From the NCBI GenBank assembly GCA_043736515.1, contig JAYTCK010000013.1:12214-76213 (forward strand): 64,000 nt of DNA. Reading direction: 5' to 3'. Below the pieces are notes generated by a model that saw only the letters and a program-made list of their open reading frames with translations, ran no database searches and was not told where the DNA came from. The translations under genes were made by a program, and so were the position numbers. Origin of the DNA: a bacterium. Lineage in GTDB: Bacteria; Patescibacteriota; Minisyncoccia; Phycocordibacterales; UBA6899. Below, piece after piece: positions 4,264-30,791 of this stretch; the first letter of the stretch is position 1, and each line of letters opens with the position of its first letter.

Positions 4264-4337
4264 TGGTGCGGGATGGGAGAATCGAACTCCCACCAGAAGT
4301 TTGGAAAACTCCTATTCTACCATTAAACTAATCCCGC
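4264..4337 (-). tRNA. tRNA-Gly(UCC), CCA encoded
   Basis: Reverse complement GCGGGATTAGTTTAATGGTAGAATAGGAGTTTTCCAAACTTCTGGTGGGAGTTCGATTCTCCCATCCCGCACCA. Acceptor GCGGGAT/ATCCCGC, anticodon loop TTTCCAA, T-arm GGGAG-TTCGATT-CTCCC. Confidence 0.85.
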
Positions 4338-4385
4338 ATTATTGTCTTTTGCCTCACGATTCTCGAATCGAACCTCTTACAGAGG

Positions 4386-4474
4386 CTGTATACCTTTTGG
4401 ATTTTTCAGAAAAAACCTCAAAAGGTCTTGCGCTCTGGCTCCCGCAAAGCCGGGTTCCCAAATGCCAGAGCTCA
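4386..4474 (+). repeat. tRNA-associated structured repeat, copy A (~90 nt). Followed at 4475-4523 by an exact duplicate of the first 49 nt of tRNA-Gly(UCC)
   Basis: CTGTATACCTTTTGGATTTTTCAGAAAAAACCTCAAAAGGTCTTGCGCTCTGGCTCCCGCAAAGCCGGGTTCCCAAATGCCAGAGCTCA aligns with copies at 26783-26870 and 30203-30289. Compensatory changes in two stems. Confidence 0.7.
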
Positions 4475-4620
4475 CCCACCAGAAGTTTGGAAAACTCCTA
4501 TTCTACCATTAAACTAATCCCGCTTGCTTATTGTGAGACTTTCGTATCCTAGCAAATTGACAACAAGGTGGCAACGGGGAAAAATGAGTAGAGATGCACT
4601 TTTTATAATAAGGATGGGTC

Positions 4621-5433
4621 ATGCCAATGAAGACAAATCCGCTTTTGGATCCCGTGCGTGCAAAGAATATGTACCGGCTTATACAGGGAATTTTTGATTT
4701 TTGGAAGCTTTGTGTCAGTCACCGCTTACTTTTACTCGGAGTAGACCGGGCGACATGGGTAATGATGCAGCGAGAAAAAATGCTCCCACCGCGAGACGAT
4801 CTCGCATCCCGCATCGCGGCGTTAATCCGAATTTACCACATGAGTGGAGATATTTACCCGCGGGACTCTGATCTCGCCGCAAAGTGGATTGAGAGGCCAA
4901 TTTTTGTTGAACCCTTTTTGGGGGTTAATCCGCGCCAATTCATGCTTATGTATGTAACGAGAGATGGGGTAGAAGAACTACAGGTTATTATTGAGTATCT
5001 CAACAATTGTTTTACTCGTTGGGATTGCCTTCGCGATCAGCATGGAAGACTGCTGCGCTGTAATGACGAGTTGCGCATGAGTGAAGAGCCCATCGACACT
5101 CTTGCACAAATGATTCTTCGAATTCAAAACAGCTGGAAATTACCCGACTCGATATTTGAACACATCATTGGAGTAAGCATGGCCGAGGTCGCTGATGTGG
5201 CAATTGGGAAAAATATACCGCCATTGAAAGTGGCTACTCAGATGAGGAGAATTGCTTGTATTGACATCGCACTGTGGTGCAATGTAGAGGACGATGAAAA
5301 AATATCTTTGTGGATGCTTTCGTTAAACAGTCATCCCCTTTTTTGCGGAGCCCCGCCGTATCATCTCCTCTCTTCACAAAACCCGAGCGTTGCAAGGGTT
5401 GTCTATACTTACCTTCGCAATATTTCACCGTAG
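4621..5433 (+). CDS. Hypothetical protein. The N-terminal ~130 aa resemble the DUF2384 (Xre/MbcA/ParS-type antitoxin toxin-binding) domain. The C-terminal ~140 aa are unassigned
   Basis: Motif pattern LLLLGVDRATW...DDLASRIAALIRIYHMSGDIY...AAKWIERPIFVEPFLGVNPRQFM...GVEELQVIIEYL. No RES-domain partner seen. Confidence 0.35.
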   Translation: MPMKTNPLLDPVRAKNMYRLIQGIFDFWKLCVSHRLLLLGVDRATWVMMQREKMLPPRDDLASRIAALIRIYHMSGDIYPRDSDLAAKWIERPIFVEPFLGVNPRQFMLMYVTRDGVEELQVIIEYLNNCFTRWDCLRDQHGRLLRCNDELRMSEEPIDTLAQMILRIQNSWKLPDSIFEHIIGVSMAEVADVAIGKNIPPLKVATQMRRIACIDIALWCNVEDDEKISLWMLSLNSHPLFCGAPPYHLLSSQNPSVARVVYTYLRNISP

Positions 5434-5483: not shown

Positions 5484-6818
5484 ATGTCTTCTATTTTTAA
5501 ATCCTATGATGTGCGTGGGCTGTATCCTTCAGAAATTAATGAGGAAATTGTTGAGAAAATTGGCCGTGCGTATGTGCTTCATACTCACGCAAAGCGTGTG
5601 GCTTTAGCAAGCGATAAGCGCGCATCATCACCATCCCTATTTGCGGCTTTAGTAAAAGGCATCACTGAAAGTGGGGCGAGTGTAATCGATCTCGGACTTC
5701 TTTCAACTCCAATGCTGTACTTTGCATCTTCCGCTTTAGATGTTGATGGGGCTATTATGGTCACTGCGTCTCATAATCCCGGAGAGTATAACGGCCTTAA
5801 GTTTTGCGAGAAGAATGCTGTGCCGATTGGCCTATCGAGTGGCCTTGCTCAAATTAGAGACCTTGTACTTACTGGAAACTTTGCTCCTGCACCCAATTTG
5901 GGAGCGATAACCTCGCAAGATATAAAGCCCGACTACGACAAACACATCGCATCTTTTGCCGACTTTAAGAATACACACTTTCACATTGCAACAGATACTG
6001 CACATGCGATGGGAGTGCTCGAGCTTCCCGTCTTGAGACAACTTCCGGGAATTGTGCTCACGGCTACGCTCTATGACACTCTTCAATTCCCAGGGGTGTG
6101 TCCTCACGAAGCAAACCCTCTTCAAACAGAAACACTGATCGAGCTCCAACATGCTGTGCGGAGCACAAAAGCAGACATGGGGATCGCATACGATGGAGAC
6201 GCTGATCGCATTGGTTTTATTGACGAACTCGGACGTGTCGTCCCCATGGACATTGTGACGGCGCTCCTAGCGCAAGCACTACTTCCAGAGCACAAGAACG
6301 GTGTAGTGCTCTATGATCTCCGCTCATCACGTGCAGTCAAAGAAGCGATAGAAAATGCTGGGGGTATCGCACATGAATCTAAGGTAGGGCACGCCAATAT
6401 AAAAAGACAGATGATAGAGGAAAACGCATTCCTTGCGGGTGAAGCATCAGGACACTACTACTTTGCACTTTCGGGATATCGGGCTGAAATGGGCACACTT
6501 CCTGCAATTCTTATCTTGAATTTAATGACACGAAACAAGAAAAAGCTCTCCGAACTCGTTGACTCAGTGCGACTTTATGCTCACTCTGGGGAAATAAATA
6601 TGGAGGTAAGCAATAAGGATGAAATTTTTGCGAAAATAAAAGCATCGTATGCAGATGGGAAATTATCCGAACTGGATGGGGTAAAAATCGAGTATCCTGA
6701 GTGGTGGTTTTCACTCCGCGCTTCGAATACCGAGCCATTAATCCGACTTAACCTTGAGGCAAGCACAAAAGAGCTCATGCAGCAGAAATTGGAGGAGGTG
6801 CTTGCGATAATCTCTTAA
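5484..6818 (+). CDS. Phosphomannomutase/phosphoglucomutase (alpha-D-phosphohexomutase family)
   Basis: Active-site TASHNPGEYNG, metal loop AYDGDADR, sugar-binding GEASGH. Confidence 0.9.
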   Translation: MSSIFKSYDVRGLYPSEINEEIVEKIGRAYVLHTHAKRVALASDKRASSPSLFAALVKGITESGASVIDLGLLSTPMLYFASSALDVDGAIMVTASHNPGEYNGLKFCEKNAVPIGLSSGLAQIRDLVLTGNFAPAPNLGAITSQDIKPDYDKHIASFADFKNTHFHIATDTAHAMGVLELPVLRQLPGIVLTATLYDTLQFPGVCPHEANPLQTETLIELQHAVRSTKADMGIAYDGDADRIGFIDELGRVVPMDIVTALLAQALLPEHKNGVVLYDLRSSRAVKEAIENAGGIAHESKVGHANIKRQMIEENAFLAGEASGHYYFALSGYRAEMGTLPAILILNLMTRNKKKLSELVDSVRLYAHSGEINMEVSNKDEIFAKIKASYADGKLSELDGVKIEYPEWWFSLRASNTEPLIRLNLEASTKELMQQKLEEVLAIIS

Positions 6819-6945
6819 CAAACTGTCCGGAAAAAATAAAACCCACATTGTTTATGCGGGTTTTATTTTTATGCATCGACTTTGAGATGCGCATCATTTT
6901 GATGATGCCTTCCAGGCCATTCTGATGGCCGTTTAAACTTATAGA

Positions 6946-7377
6946 TTAACGTTCCACTTGAATGACTTGTGTCAACTCTGCTGTGGGCGCCTTTACAACA
7001 ATACGATTTCCGGATGAGGTAGCAATCGTATAGCCTGTGTTATTAACGGAAGTTGATAAAGGATCAACGGGCATGCTAACAATGTAGCTTGGGACCAAGC
7101 CAGAGAGATCTGCGCATGATGTTGTTGCAACAGCGTTTGACTTACAGACCTGCTTATCAGTTCCATTAATTCCCGAAGGAAGTGCCCCGCGGTTGTCTAC
7201 TGCGTACTGATGTACTGCATTTAAAATGGCATTTACATTACTCCAGCGCTGAGAGTTGTTTGCCTGAGCAAATTGACGTGCGGGGTTAATTGCAACAACG
7301 ACAATTGCTGCGAGGATAGCGATGATACCGATAACCACGAGCACTTCAATAAGCGTAAAACCTTTATTTTTCTTCAT
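6946..7377 (-). CDS. Type IV pilin (prepilin with class III signal peptide)
   Basis: MKKNKGFTLIEVLVVIGIIAILAAI: G/F cleavage site, Glu at +5, hydrophobic N-terminal helix. Confidence 0.85.
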   Translation of the reverse strand: MKKNKGFTLIEVLVVIGIIAILAAIVVVAINPARQFAQANNSQRWSNVNAILNAVHQYAVDNRGALPSGINGTDKQVCKSNAVATTSCADLSGLVPSYIVSMPVDPLSTSVNNTGYTIATSSGNRIVVKAPTAELTQVIQVER

Positions 7378-26464: not shown

Positions 26465-26585
26465 ATGCGCCGGGAATTTCTCGCCTTACAGGCGCAGTAC
26501 CCCTTTCCCATTTCTGAGGATTCAGAAATCCTCAGAAATATGGGAGAAGGGCTTCGAATCCCGACGAAAGGCACGCAGGTGCCTT

Positions 26586-26648
26586 TCTCGCCCCGACAAT
26601 ATGAAAAAAGAACCTTCATTAGGTTCTTTTTTTATATTGTCGGGGCGC
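26586..26648. terminator. Long nested perfect hairpin abutting or overlapping the tRNA-Pro 3' end
   Basis: GCCCCGACAATAT-[GAAAAAAGAACCT TCAT TAGGTTCTTTTTT]-ATATTGTCGGGGC. Confidence 0.5.
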
Positions 26649-26712
26649 CGGGATTCGAACCCGGAGTCGCTCGCTCCCAAAGCGAGAATGTTAGCCGTTA
26701 CACCACGCCCCG
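26640..26712 (-). tRNA. tRNA-Pro(UGG), no encoded CCA
   Basis: Reverse complement CGGGGCGTGGTGTAACGGCTAACATTCTCGCTTTGGGAGCGAGCGACTCCGGGTTCGAATCCCGGCGCCCCGA. Anticodon loop TTTGGGA. Confidence 0.85.
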
Positions 26713-26782
26713 TATATTTACTACCTTGTGACACACGCTCATTTCGCACAAGCACTGAGTGTTAGCCGTCTCCGTACCGGAG

Positions 26783-26870
26783 CTGTACACCTTTTGGATT
26801 TTTCGGAAAAAACCTCAAAAGGTCTTGCGGTGTGGCTCCCATAGGAATGGGTTCCCTTTTGCCACACCTC
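26783..26870 (+). repeat. tRNA-associated structured repeat, copy B. Followed at 26871-26883 by a duplicate of the first 13 nt of tRNA-Pro. A D-loop fragment (TGTTAGCCGT) lies on the other side at 26760-26769
   Basis: CTGTACACCTTTTGGATTTTTCGGAAAAAACCTCAAAAGGTCTTGCGGTGTGGCTCCCATAGGAATGGGTTCCCTTTTGCCACACCTC. Confidence 0.7.
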
Positions 26871-26943
26871 ACACCACGCCCCGTTAAACAACAAAACGCT
26901 CATCTGAGCGTTTTGAGTATAGCAGATAGTGAAACAAAGACAA

Positions 26944-29100: not shown

Positions 29101-29605
29101 ACTAATCTAAAACCGTTCCACATGAAACATTCTCAAACACAGAACGGCATGGTACGGCAATTAAGCCGGCATACGCACTGTGCCAATCAGCAATGAAACT
29201 TCCTGGCAATGTTCCACGTGTAACATCTGATTGCCACGATCATGTCTCTTCTGAAATGCTTGGCTTTTTATGATTTATTAGACTTTTTTAAAAAATCCTT
29301 CGCGAAGCTATCCACTGTTTAAAAACCCGCGCTTTATCCTGCGAGGTTCAACCTCGTAGGATGTTATATAAAGCCTAATTCTTGAAGGAATACTGACTAT
29401 TAAAAGAGGTCTCATGTGTAGCTGCCATAAAAACTGAGCCGAAGCACTGAGGGTAGTGTCTGTGTATAAACATGTGGATAGTGTGCATAAAGGACACTCA
29501 AGGACACAATTTTGTCCTTTATAAACACTATACACAGGGTTATCCACAGTTGTGCGCACAGGAGGTGACAAAAAGCGCGAGTTGCTATTTAATTAGAAAA
29601 GAGCC

Positions 29606-30007
29606 TTGCCGTATGGAGGTATTGTGGAAAACAGACTGAAAGTTTTGGTTGTTGAAGATGATTCTGATCTTCAAGATGCCTACCGAATGAGCCTTGAGCA
29701 TCTTGTAGACGTTGTCACTGCCGGCAGTATTTCCTCAGCAATGACTGCGCTGCGACGTGAAAAAAAGTTTTCGCTTATTATTCTCGATGGGAATGTCCCA
29801 CGGCGCGATAATGAGCCTTTGATGCAGACGACGGTTGAACTTGCACAACACATCTCGTTTGTACTTGGCATCCCCATGATTTCCGCTTCCGGCGACGAGA
29901 AATTAAACGACATACTTGTCTGCAGAGGCTGTATACGAGCAGACAAGTTCACTGCTGTTCAAGAAGCGGAGAGGTTCCTTGCGGGAATTAATGCCAAAAT
30001 AACCTAG
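29606..30007 (+). CDS. Receiver-domain-like protein (degenerate response regulator)
   Basis: KVLVVEDDSDLQD, LIILDGNVP. Confidence 0.5.
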   Translation: MPYGGIVENRLKVLVVEDDSDLQDAYRMSLEHLVDVVTAGSISSAMTALRREKKFSLIILDGNVPRRDNEPLMQTTVELAQHISFVLGIPMISASGDEKLNDILVCRGCIRADKFTAVQEAERFLAGINAKIT

Positions 30008-30040: not shown

Positions 30041-30150
30041 TTTATTGGTCTTTCATTAGCAAAATTGGCGGGAGGAGGATCGTCGTTAATTTGCCATTTC
30101 AAATAAGATTCGCTAGTATATGGCGACACGCTGAGCATAAAAATGCGCTT

Positions 30151-30202
30151 GCGGGTATGGTTTAGTGGTAGAATACGTCCTTGCCAAGGATGAGACGGGA
30201 GT
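30151..30202 (+). pseudogene. Exact duplicate of the first 52 nt of tRNA-Gly(GCC), ending in the T-stem. Interrupted by repeat copy C
   Basis: GCGGGTATGGTTTAGTGGTAGAATACGTCCTTGCCAAGGATGAGACGGGAGT is identical to 30345-30396. Confidence 0.75.
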
Positions 30203-30289
30203 GAGGTGTGGCTACTGGGAACCCATTCTGATGGGGCCACACCGCAAGACCTTTTGAGGTTTTTTCTGAAAAATCCAAAAGGTGTACAG
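30203..30289 (-). repeat. tRNA-associated structured repeat, copy C. Inverse orientation on the + strand, but in the same orientation relative to its tRNA as copies A and B
   Basis: Reverse complement CTGTACACCTTTTGGATTTTTCAGAAAAAACCTCAAAAGGTCTTGCGGTGTGGCCCCATCAGAATGGGTTCCCAGTAGCCACACCTC. Confidence 0.7.
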
Positions 30290-30344
30290 GTCCTGTAGGG
30301 ACCGATTCTCCCTAAATGAGGAATCGCGGTACAATATAAAAAAT

Positions 30345-30415
30345 GCGGGTATGGTTTAGTGGTAGAATACGTCCTTGCCAAGGATGAGACGGGAGTTCGA
30401 TTCTCCCTACCCGCA
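30345..30415 (+). tRNA. tRNA-Gly(GCC), no encoded CCA
   Basis: GCGGGTATGGTTTAGTGGTAGAATACGTCCTTGCCAAGGATGAGACGGGAGTTCGATTCTCCCTACCCGCA. Anticodon loop TTGCCAA. A TACAAT -10-like box lies at 30329-30334. Confidence 0.85.
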
Positions 30416-30459
30416 CAAATACAAAAATACCGCCGCCGCAAGGCGGTATTTTGTATTTG
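30416..30459 (+). terminator. Long perfect hairpin immediately 3' of tRNA-Gly(GCC)
   Basis: CAAATACAAAAATACCGCC-GCCGCAA-GGCGGTATTTTGTATTTG. Confidence 0.6.
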
Positions 30460-30706
30460 TGCGGGTAAGAAGTGCCCCACGGCACTTCGTGGGAGAATCG
30501 AAGCCGTTCTCCCATAATTTTAAGCGACAACCGCTGTCGTTTAAAATTGGGAAACGGGTACTGCGCCTGTAAGGCGAGATTCTCATATTTAAGTACCTGC
30601 GGAAGTAATCGGCGATTCTCCCTAGTTATGCCTGCTTAATGCGTAGTTGGCGATTCTTTGATTTTTTGTCAACTGCGCGCTATAGTTGGCCTATTATATA
30701 GACGAC

Positions 30707-30778
30707 GCTCCCGTAGTGAAACGGATATCACAACGGTCTTCGAAACCGTTAGTCCAAGTTCGAGTCTTGGCGGGAGCA
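30707..30778 (+). tRNA. tRNA-Arg(UCG), no encoded CCA
   Basis: GCTCCCGTAGTGAAACGGATATCACAACGGTCTTCGAAACCGTTAGTCCAAGTTCGAGTCTTGGCGGGAGCA. Acceptor GCTCCCG/CGGGAGC. Anticodon loop CTTCGAA. Confidence 0.8.
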
Positions 30779-30791
30779 CAAATAGAAATTT

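Follow-up and report, generated by a model that had tools for sequence, protein, structure and literature searches.

A conserved structured repeat interrupts truncated tRNA copies in Patescibacteria and may be a non-autonomous mobile element

Patescibacteria have very small genomes, usually with one gene per tRNA. In a 64,000-nt stretch of such a genome (UBA6899, order Phycocordibacterales; GenBank assembly GCA_043736515.1, contig JAYTCK010000013.1, positions 12,214 to 76,213 of the forward strand; hereafter the window), three tRNA genes are each preceded by a truncated copy of themselves, and each truncated copy is interrupted by a folded sequence of ~102 nt, which we call element E. What is this element, and how does it come to lie within tRNA sequence? 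We compared the window with related loci from other Patescibacteria and, at a probability of roughly 60%, favour the reading that E is a new non-autonomous, strand-specific, structured mobile element, which persists in partial tRNA duplicates that the host can spare and is transcribed together with the tRNA as part of its leader.

Results

E interrupts truncated tRNA copies at three loci of the window

ARAGORN and Rfam identified four tRNA genes in the window (Table 1). Three of them, tRNA-Gly(UCC), tRNA-Pro(UGG) and tRNA-Gly(GCC), have the same layout: a truncated 5' copy of the tRNA interrupted by E, the remainder of the tRNA, a spacer and the intact tRNA. The fourth, tRNA-Arg(UCG), is without E. 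In all three copies E lies upstream of its tRNA and in the same orientation, and a 36-nt core pattern with up to three mismatches matched the window exactly three times, at these loci, and never in 100 shuffled sequences. The GAATCG string in both Gly spacers complements the T-loop piece CGATTC. The spacers did not qualify as degenerate copies of E, because their TGAG- and GTACA-like strings were inconsistent from one spacer to another and the covariance model described below had no match there.

A first-pass annotation of the window, made from its letters alone, had already described the three loci, and they are present as it described them, with 5' fragments of 52, 49 and 13 nt when the nucleotides shared with the element are counted. 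Its element length of ~90 nt was too short, as a further 13-nt hairpin (P4, 5 bp with a GUA triloop), which also covaries, brings E to ~102 nt. In the order that it gave, 5' fragment, element and spacer, the spacer really starts with 8–12 nt of resumed tRNA sequence (CGATTCTCCCTA, TTCGATTC and ACGGCTAACA), and only then do 28–47 nt of spacer follow. Aligned with the adjacent tRNA, the upstream copy consists of tRNA positions 1 to n, an insert of ~102 nt, and tRNA positions n+2 to n+11 or n+13. Since the tRNA sequence resumes after E, the element does not simply follow a 5' fragment; the upstream copy is a piece of tRNA into which E is inserted.

E belongs to a family with a covarying fold

We scanned one genome per species with the degenerate pattern GGGAACCC N17-20 CGCAAGACCTTTTG and recovered 51 loci (L001 to L051), all in metagenome-assembled genomes (MAGs) of Patescibacteria, or the candidate phyla radiation (CPR), with several loci per genome (Paceibacterota, Lloydbacteria, Saccharibacteria, Parcubacteria). 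The window and the 51 loci together contained 57 pattern matches. A covariance model built from 40 copies and searched against the same sequences yielded 65 copies above the threshold of 60 bits, and the window held exactly three strong ones (115–120 bits). More than 20 independent MAG contigs, originating in different studies, have the same layout, which excludes the assembly artefact that the first-pass annotation had considered.

At the gathering threshold, Rfam 15 matched only the four tRNAs in the window, and at E ≤ 10 positions 30100–30480 gave nothing relevant except a weak tRNA match to the truncated copy. The viral collection (viral_contigs) contained 0 E matches, leaving carriage by phages unsupported. 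A literature search turned up one related paper, on tRNA group I introns of Patescibacteria (PMC13011429), which contains no description of E, and otherwise nothing relevant. As part of the reading given above, we think it probable that the E family is a previously undescribed, non-coding family of ~100–125 nt that is confined to Patescibacteria as far as sampled. A variant of E was seen in three loci (L025 5755-5850, L034 3630-3741, L046 3364-3465), where TGTACAG and P4 are swapped for another 3' domain (GGTGCTGAATTGCG...GCAATTTAGAGACGGA); these variant copies lie ~150–200 nt upstream of tRNA-Ile or tRNA-Ser.

From its 5' end, E is composed of GTGAG, helix P1 enclosing P2, CGCAAGA, P3, TGTACAG and P4. 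The element starts with G1-UGAG, and P1 has U2-A and G3-C at its base and continues with 7–8 base pairs that vary; inside it lie an internal loop (NNNN-GGGAA) and P2, a small hairpin. In P3 the lower stem (CCUUUUGAG/CCAAAAGG) is invariant and the tip varies, being expanded in some copies, and P4 follows UGUACAG. The single-stranded joining motifs GUGAG, GGGAA, CGCAAGA and UGUACAG are invariant, and the helices form three hairpin domains (P1/P2, P3 and P4).

The compensatory changes that the first-pass annotation quoted between copies are real, and the conserved secondary structure that it proposed was confirmed by covariation against 500 shuffles, none of which matched the observed value of any covariation measure. 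Among the 40 copies, 97.5% of the cells were standard pairs, compared with 84.4% after shuffling; cells with double changes numbered 147 against 32.6 expected, and double changes occurred in 18 of the 33 pairs. The covariation score was 0.361 and did not exceed 0.081 once the 3' partners were slid. In the RNAalifold consensus there were ~29 G·U pairs and ~4 A·C pairs, and the sense fold was ~5 kcal/mol stabler than the antisense fold. The large excess of G·U over A·C indicates that the strand which folds is the one reading GTGAG, whether as RNA or as single-stranded DNA. A search for a pseudoknot or internal guide positions was negative, with the top mutual-information column pairs all inside helices.

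E copies share an insertion signature and differ between relatives

Approximately 22 tRNA-adjacent copies have tRNA positions ~1 to n as the left flank, and in the right flank the tRNA resumes at n+2 to n+4. These copies involve at least ten tRNA species at varied n: ~8 in tRNA-Ile, 13 in tRNA-Pro(UGG) of the window and 38 in that of L048, ~17 in Ser-GGA, 17 in Pro-GGG, 40 in Arg-CCU, 49 in both Gly-CCC and Gly-UCC, 52 in Gly-GCC, 53 in Cys and 58 in Ser-UGA. One E copy, in L030, is antisense to tRNA-Glu. Target-site duplications were absent, and the target instead loses 2–3 nt, which are replaced by E and of which the first was G in 15/15 pairs of interrupted copy and intact parent. The replaced nucleotides were most commonly GAG, and also GGC, GCG, GGT, GTT, GTA, GG and GC. 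The same footprint fits two copies outside this setting: the one in L048 that lies within the antisense T-arm segment of E2, a relative of E described below (CAGA/GAA/TCGAA), and the second copy of a tandem E-E pair in L018, which lacks its first GTG. The left flank has a weak preference for G at -2 (32/49) and -1, and few copies have T at -3 or C at -1; no base is preferred in the right flank. The ends of E (GTGAGG... and the variable P4 stem) have no terminal inverted repeats.

Excision of E in silico restored a full tRNA in 1 of 52 copies, the tRNA-Trp of L026, which has weak stems and is probably a pseudogene. Because excision restores a tRNA only once, and a degenerate one, E is not an intron of functional genes. 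E copies interrupting protein genes were also considered and rejected, as excision restored no long open reading frame (ORF). The L026 sequence (833-1012) is a full-length degenerate tRNA-Trp(CCA) with E in its T-loop, situated within a 23S-5S-tRNA cluster, and it is the only full-length tRNA found with E.

L045 and L048 share synteny with the window; identity to L045 is 80% for the adjacent protein and 100% for the 5' part of tRNA-Gly. Neither relative has E upstream of tRNA-Gly(GCC). Upstream of tRNA-Pro, L045 has no E and L048 has it at n=38, compared with n=13 in the window. The empty sites are also without the upstream partial tRNA copy. Since syntenic relatives are empty or interrupted elsewhere, E has been gained or lost by insertion. 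At the Gly-CCC loci the pseudo-tRNA upstream of the gene contains nested inserts; that of L036 reads E, tRNA 8-30, a 45-nt insert, tRNA 25-49, E, tRNA 52-63. The differences between relatives, the nested and tandem insertions and the consistent footprint together support the inserted, non-autonomous element that had been one of the two candidates of the first-pass annotation. The ~45-nt insert of the Gly-CCC pseudo-tRNA (TAAATTTTAACGACCGCAGGAAGTATAAAATTGGAAGTACTCTTGTG; L036 4157-4260, with equivalents in L037, L010 and L032 and a local GTGACC repeat) may be another small element family.

E is linked to tRNA genes and to their partial duplicates

Of the 65 copies, 27 (42%) lie at most 300 nt upstream of a same-strand tRNA, a position in which ~2% would be expected from position alone. 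Five more follow a tRNA of their own strand, two lie near a tRNA of the opposite strand, and 31 have no tRNA within 300 nt. An element scattered without tRNA linkage, which the first-pass annotation had named as an outcome contrary to its tRNA targeting, is thus not what the window and the 51 loci show: linkage is strong, yet about half of the copies are elsewhere, and E is not specific to tRNAs. Its constant orientation relative to the tRNA holds in the window and is not absolute beyond it (32 same-strand and 2 opposite-strand copies within 300 nt).

Several copies away from tRNAs lie 24–70 nt past a convergent gene, and others occupy the apex of intergenic palindromes that are long and imperfect (L015, L028, L038, L043, L044); L015 contains an uninterrupted paralogue 430 nt away. 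The generalization that the flanks of E regularly pair to close a hairpin loop around it was rejected, as complementary flanks were significant in 7/50 copies and 6% of controls (p=0.40), in a test that is blind to short tRNA arms. The flank-closed subset comprises L015, L028, L030, L038, L043, L044 and L050.

At the tRNA loci, the left arm begins at approximately tRNA +1 wherever it is traceable, and the right arm is mostly 8–15 nt long. At the Gly-GCC and Pro loci of the window, the truncated copy therefore ends just past the arm hit by E (the T-arm and the D-arm, respectively, judged by eye), and inspection placed E in the last arm of the truncated copy. This coupling of the copy's 3' boundary to the position of E argues for a link of duplication or trimming with insertion at E loci, and suggests that the partial duplication was made or trimmed in the same event as the insertion.

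Partial duplicates are frequent around tRNA genes. Among 60 sampled tRNAs, 40 had at least one partial copy of at least 11 nt within 450 nt, and 30 of these 40 were near an E-family module. In three loci the duplicates form tandem arrays (L008, L028 and L051), whose units consist of the first 22–55 nt of the tRNA plus an 18–52-nt spacer and are mostly without E. In L051 (tRNA-Pro, 4570-4990) there are four units of tRNA 1-55 plus 36 nt of upstream sequence, one of them with E, and in L008 (2370-2630) and L028 (2230-2390) E-less arrays of tRNA 1-~22 plus spacer precede tRNA-Val. L008 also has a pseudo-copy of tRNA 1-32 upstream of tRNA-Arg(UCU). Simple tandem duplication including the upstream region was rejected as a general explanation, since the spacers as a rule show no significant similarity to the upstream sequence; the exceptions are L051, the only clear case, and the Pro locus of the window (p=0.027). 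The claim that E supplies the 5' half of the tRNA is one of two equivalent descriptions of the partial duplication, and E-less arrays of tRNA 5' part plus spacer occur in the same genomes.

Two further observations concern duplicated tRNA sequence. In the tRNA-Val array copies of L008 and L028 the D-loop is altered from GCTCAG to GCTGTC, GCTGTT or GCTATC. In L001, tRNA-Ser(GGA) and its flanks are duplicated 2.35 kb apart (4571-4711 and 6918-7058), and between the duplicates lie three small membrane-protein ORFs and, on the minus strand at 6164-6838, a Y1 transposase resembling the REP-associated tyrosine transposases (RAYTs) of repetitive extragenic palindromic (REP) sequences.

E probably lies in a long tRNA leader at the Gly loci

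Promoter-like sites were called as consensus matches only. At both Gly loci such a site lies upstream of the truncated copy, 31 nt (Gly-GCC) and 22 nt (Gly-UCC) from +1, distances comparable to the 20–27 nt at the empty orthologous sites. No terminator-like site was found at the Gly loci between the promoter-like site and the intact tRNA. The spacers contain at most a -10-like box 5–10 nt before +1; the Gly-GCC spacer has no full promoter match, the Gly-UCC spacer also has, at 4366-4338, a match of 9/12 with the last base of its -10 hexamer at tRNA -1; the spacer of L009 is 21 nt in all. The position of the sites and the lack of an intervening terminator indicate that E is probably transcribed in a long 5' leader, and the sequence points to probable co-transcription from the ancestral tRNA promoter at the Gly loci. 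The suggestion that E supplies a new promoter is thus not supported: at the Gly loci the promoter-like site occupies the place that it has at empty orthologous sites, and the Pro site is doubtful. The other candidate of the first-pass annotation, a structured leader or non-coding RNA, is compatible with our results in part, as E would probably be within the tRNA 5' leader transcript.

In the predicted minimum free energy fold of the whole precursor (30151-30416), strands of the acceptor and anticodon arms in the truncated copy are paired with their complements in the intact tRNA (z = -5.5), so correct folding of the tRNA could face competition from the leader. At 29461-29631 there is a cluster of five DnaA-box-like sites, among them the window's only perfect TTATCCACA. 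Gene orientation switches at the same place, with minus-strand genes to the left and plus-strand genes to the right, and the cumulative GC skew has its minimum at 28–32 kb. Taken together, these features place oriC probably ~0.5 kb upstream of the tRNA-Gly(GCC) locus, in which case all three E copies of the window are co-oriented with fork movement.

A distant relative, E2, lies downstream of tRNA genes

Two further elements of the window, E2, match the E model weakly over its full length (Table 1), and the model matches mark them as distant relatives of E. The modules common to both are a GUGAG-like start (GUAAG), the P1 hairpin, the junction, the long hairpin, GUACUG and P4. The E2 junction adds 11–12 nt that are antisense to the T-arm of the neighbouring tRNA and specific to each tRNA. 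In full, E2 loci read: terminator hairpin, inverted tRNA 3' end, GTAAG with a 23-nt hairpin, T-arm antisense, AT-rich long hairpin, GTACTG with P4, and a direct tRNA 3' fragment. E2 was also found in L045 (2440-2690) and downstream of tRNA-Pro in L048, and many tRNAs are followed by the same geometry, in which a copy of positions 64-52 lies inverted at ~+70 and a copy of positions 52-72 lies in direct orientation at ~+150.

Table 1. Positions of E, E2, tRNA genes and promoter-like sites in the window.
Feature	Position	Strand	Remarks
Promoter-like TTGCCA-17-TAGTAT	30091..30119	+	Upstream of truncated Gly-GCC copy; probable ancestral tRNA promoter
Left arm Gly-GCC	30151..30200	+	Exact tRNA 1-50; 52 if the element's first GT is counted
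E copy 1	30201..30302	+	Covariance model 114.9 bits, E=7.6e-26
Right arm Gly-GCC CGATTCTCCCTA	30303..30314	+	tRNA 54-65: T-loop remainder, T-stem 3' strand, 2 extra nt
Spacer Gly-GCC	30315..30344	+	GAATCG (complements right arm) and TACAAT -10-like box
Intact tRNA-Gly(GCC)	30345..30416	+	ARAGORN/Rfam
E2 downstream of tRNA-Gly(GCC)	30465..30576	+	Model 21.1 bits; E=0.002 window, 1.5e-4 region
tRNA-Arg(UCG)	30707..30779	+	ARAGORN/Rfam
Promoter-like TTGCCA-17-TAGGAT, TG extension	4546..4574	-	Upstream of truncated Gly-UCC copy
Left arm Gly-UCC	4476..4523	-	Exact tRNA 1-48; 49 with shared G
E copy 2	4374..4475	-	Model 114.5 bits (model match spans 4373-4475)
Right arm Gly-UCC TTCGATTC	4366..4373	-	T-loop region of tRNA-Gly(UCC)
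Spacer Gly-UCC	4338..4365	-	
Intact tRNA-Gly(UCC)	4264..4337	-	ARAGORN/Rfam
Promoter-like TTGTCT-16-TATACT	26943-26916	-	Upstream of truncated Pro copy
Left arm Pro-UGG	26873..26883	-	tRNA 1-11; 13 with shared GT
E copy 3	26770..26872	-	Model 119.7 bits
Right arm Pro-UGG ACGGCTAACA	26760..26769	-	D-loop remainder and D-stem 3' strand
Spacer Pro-UGG	26713..26759	-	Hairpin resembling one upstream of truncated copy
Intact tRNA-Pro(UGG)	26639..26712	-	ARAGORN/Rfam
E2 downstream of tRNA-Pro	26482..26565	-	Model 26 bits, E=1.5e-4

Discussion

A probable mobile element in dispensable tRNA duplicates

If E is a mobile element, its distribution would follow from the genes that it hits. Insertion into a single-copy functional tRNA would be lethal, and the survivors would be those insertions that have an intact copy beside the interrupted one. 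E would be transcribed from the ancestral tRNA promoter as a long 5' leader, from which RNase P would then free the tRNA, so that the element might gain expression at no cost to the host. The insertion itself could have involved a small circle of the form arm-E-arm-spacer, for which one crossover within the left arm would produce exactly the observed order, or else an insertion that depends on a break or on synthesis and during which the template is switched locally.

Several results weigh against this reading. The copies of E are old: recent transposition was unseen, and there was no near-identical pair of filled and empty alleles. Copies from one genome are 79% identical and copies from different genomes 76%, and only 12 of 42 copies have their nearest relative in their own genome. 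The fold is kept by compensation in diverged copies, even at the same site across genomes, as would also be expected of an RNA selected by the host. Partial 5' duplications without E exist, so duplication may be an independent process. At the Pro locus, the promoter-like site shares sequence with the end of the preceding gene, and a terminator-like hairpin comes after it. Nor was a mobilizing enzyme found: all-versus-all clustering of 1195 ORFs from the loci returned only syntenic housekeeping families, and a Y1 HUH transposase is a doubtful candidate for the mobilizer, as homologues occur in only 3 of the 51 loci and none in the window. One of them, in L005, lies 15 nt downstream of E (Pfam PF01797, E=2e-7), and the Y1 gene of L001 has 23-nt inverted repeats of its own (6122-6144, 6872-6894), which are unrelated to E. 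Given the age of the copies, the covariation may stem from selection for lineages able to transpose, from selection acting in situ, or from the two together.

Alternative explanations

This last point keeps a host function alive. E might be a non-mobile RNA selected by the host, acting in transcription, processing or stability as a cis domain of tRNA leaders or as a stand-alone RNA, with its copies arising from local tandem duplication. We regard this as a possible but doubtful explanation. It accommodates the fold and invariant loops kept by compensation in old, diverged copies, the 32 to 2 strand bias near tRNAs and the probable position in a transcribed leader; the E-less tandem arrays mean that duplication occurs anyway, and L028 resembles, by eye, a unit of promoter, long closing stem and T-run. 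It does not sit well with an element that interrupts tRNA sequence at many positions with a constant footprint, with relatives in which the same tRNA is hit elsewhere or syntenic sites lack E, or with nested and tandem insertions. Moreover, half of the copies have no relation to tRNAs and are found in either orientation to their neighbouring genes, several of them such that they would be antisense to a convergent gene, and tRNAs without E, such as tRNA-Arg(TCG) of the window, are not evidently impaired.

Mobility might instead operate at the RNA level. In this new class of element, E and E2 RNA made from tRNA promoters would be copied back into DNA or recombined at tRNA-like sequences, a process that would itself generate the partial duplications, from the mature 5' end to a few nucleotides beyond E, in a manner resembling short interspersed nuclear elements (SINEs) and R2 or a tRNA-targeting catalytic RNA. 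We hold this class of mechanism to be unlikely, though worth keeping in view. The fold of the GTGAG strand would suit an RNA as well as single-stranded DNA; no reverse transcriptase was found near E.

A miniature integrative element appears improbable. It would be a circle composed of tRNA 1 to n, E, right arm and spacer, entering by a Campbell-type crossover in the left arm or one made by a trans-acting recombinase. Writing A and B for the two parts of the tRNA, B' for the right arm and S for the spacer, a single crossover in arm A yields the order A-E-B'-S-A-B; it also accounts for a spacer that mostly bears no relation to what precedes the truncated copy, and for the lack of right-arm crossovers, which would destroy the tRNA. 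The mirror image seen at E2, with intact tRNA, element and displaced 3' fragment, is the classical attachment (att) pattern. However, no integrase or recombinase gene is nearby, and arms matching different tRNAs, the 2–3-nt replacement with its G and the copies without duplication would all go unexplained.

Still less probable is a guide-RNA scaffold of the omega-RNA or bridge-RNA type, in which the tRNA arms would guide a nuclease or recombinase. A structured scaffold with target-identical sequence on both sides fits such a role, as does the tRNA-specific 11–12-nt T-arm antisense at the P1/P3 junction of E2. On the other hand, internal positions of E do not covary with the flanks, there is no conserved motif like a target-adjacent motif (TAM), no adjacent TnpB, IscB or IS110-type gene, and no Rfam match to omega or HEARO RNAs; the arms, at 11–52 nt, are unlike guides, and many flanks are unrelated to a nearby target.

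An intron or self-cleaving ribozyme in the tRNA precursor, in keeping with the GUGAG at a sharp 5' boundary, the compact fold with invariant junction nucleotides and the richness of Patescibacteria in tRNA group I introns (PMC13011429), is very unlikely, since excision restores a tRNA in one weak-stemmed case of 52, an intact tRNA is always alongside, and E is too small, with no Rfam match to group I or II introns or ribozymes and no pseudoknot covariation.

Implications

The sampled tRNA genes were flanked by partial copies of themselves in 40 of 60 cases, and small structured inserts are the usual companions of these copies. If the mobile-element reading is true, E represents an unusual answer to the problem of inserting into essential genes, in which the element coexists with a restored gene copy and no splicing is needed. 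A widespread and strongly conserved fold that is absent from Rfam is also a new target for RNA biology, possibly as a ribozyme, as the partner of a protein or as a transposition substrate. For annotation, truncated tRNA copies and long structured leaders confuse the prediction of tRNAs and promoters in CPR genomes.

Comparison with known systems

The introns of Patescibacteria are the nearest systems by host. Their tRNA group I introns are abundant and self-splicing, and lie at position 35/36 inside the functional gene, and group II introns have not been reported from the phylum (PMC13011429). Group I introns share with E the phylum, the host genes and the structured RNA insert, but have a P3-P9 core of ~200 nt or more in a functional gene, whereas E has 102 nt, sits in truncated copies at many positions and has no Rfam match. 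Group II introns have domains I–VI, including domain V, and usually a reverse transcriptase ORF; E has three hairpin domains and no Rfam match, and the likeness of its GUGAG start to the group II GUGYG is superficial. Among self-cleaving ribozymes (hepatitis delta virus-like, hatchet, twister, hammerhead) there was no Rfam match and no pseudoknot covariation, and the invariant positions were uninformative. In bridge-RNA/IS110 systems, guide loops covary with the target and a DEDD recombinase gene is adjacent, whereas E has no covariation outside its helices. Neither a reverse transcriptase nor a recombinase was seen among the recurrent neighbour ORF families, which were clustered without domain annotation.

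Integrative elements that target tRNA genes resemble E in their target, in the flanking partial copy and in the retention of an intact gene. The classical att arrangement differs in that the 3' part is duplicated downstream and an integrase is involved; E is 100 nt long, lies inside an interrupted 5' copy upstream of the gene, and had no integrase nearby. The first-pass annotation, which had set aside both a group I intron and a classical 3'-att duplication, was right on both counts. E2 comes closer than E to the att geometry.

By analogy, E may also be compared with R2 in rRNA genes and with tRNA-derived SINEs, which are co-transcribed from strong promoters of host structural RNAs, make small target deletions and include non-autonomous copies. 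The likeness would extend to variable 5' junctions and to flank duplications or inversions as by-products, as an analogy of logic only; E differs in having neither a poly-A nor a 3' repeat.

Among small DNA elements, miniature inverted-repeat transposable elements (MITEs) have terminal inverted repeats and a target duplication of fixed length, and E has neither. The palindrome-associated transposable elements (PATEs) of IS200/IS605 and the TnpB omega-RNA systems use a TAM of 4–5 nt and lose no bases, whereas E has a weak preference for G at -2/-1 and its target loses bases; E shares with them strand-specific subterminal structure, though that feature is not specific to the family. Together with REPs, their composite bacterial interspersed mosaic elements (BIMEs) and the associated RAYTs, PATEs are like E in being small, multi-copy, intergenic and non-coding, with a strand-specific fold and no terminal inverted repeats or target-site duplications. 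The beginnings are also alike, as a REP starts with GTAG and then a hairpin, and E and E2 start with GTGAG or GTAAG and then a hairpin. E departs from REPs and PATEs in having four helices with invariant junctions instead of one hairpin, in removing 2–3 nt and in lacking a tetra- or pentanucleotide target, and from REP/RAYT systems in having no consistently nearby Y1 gene; the cognate repeats of the RAYT that we examined differ from E.

Rickettsia palindromic elements (RPEs) are tolerated in frame inside protein-coding genes. They offer a further analogy, as structured repeats of ~100–150 nt that have spread in small genomes and insert into genes for structured molecules, with function kept. 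E would be tolerated by other means, through an adjacent intact gene copy, and is probably unrelated to RPEs in sequence and fold. Judged by these likenesses, E would seem to work most like the selfish structured repeats of bacteria (REPs, PATEs and RPEs), with an unusual relationship to tRNA genes.

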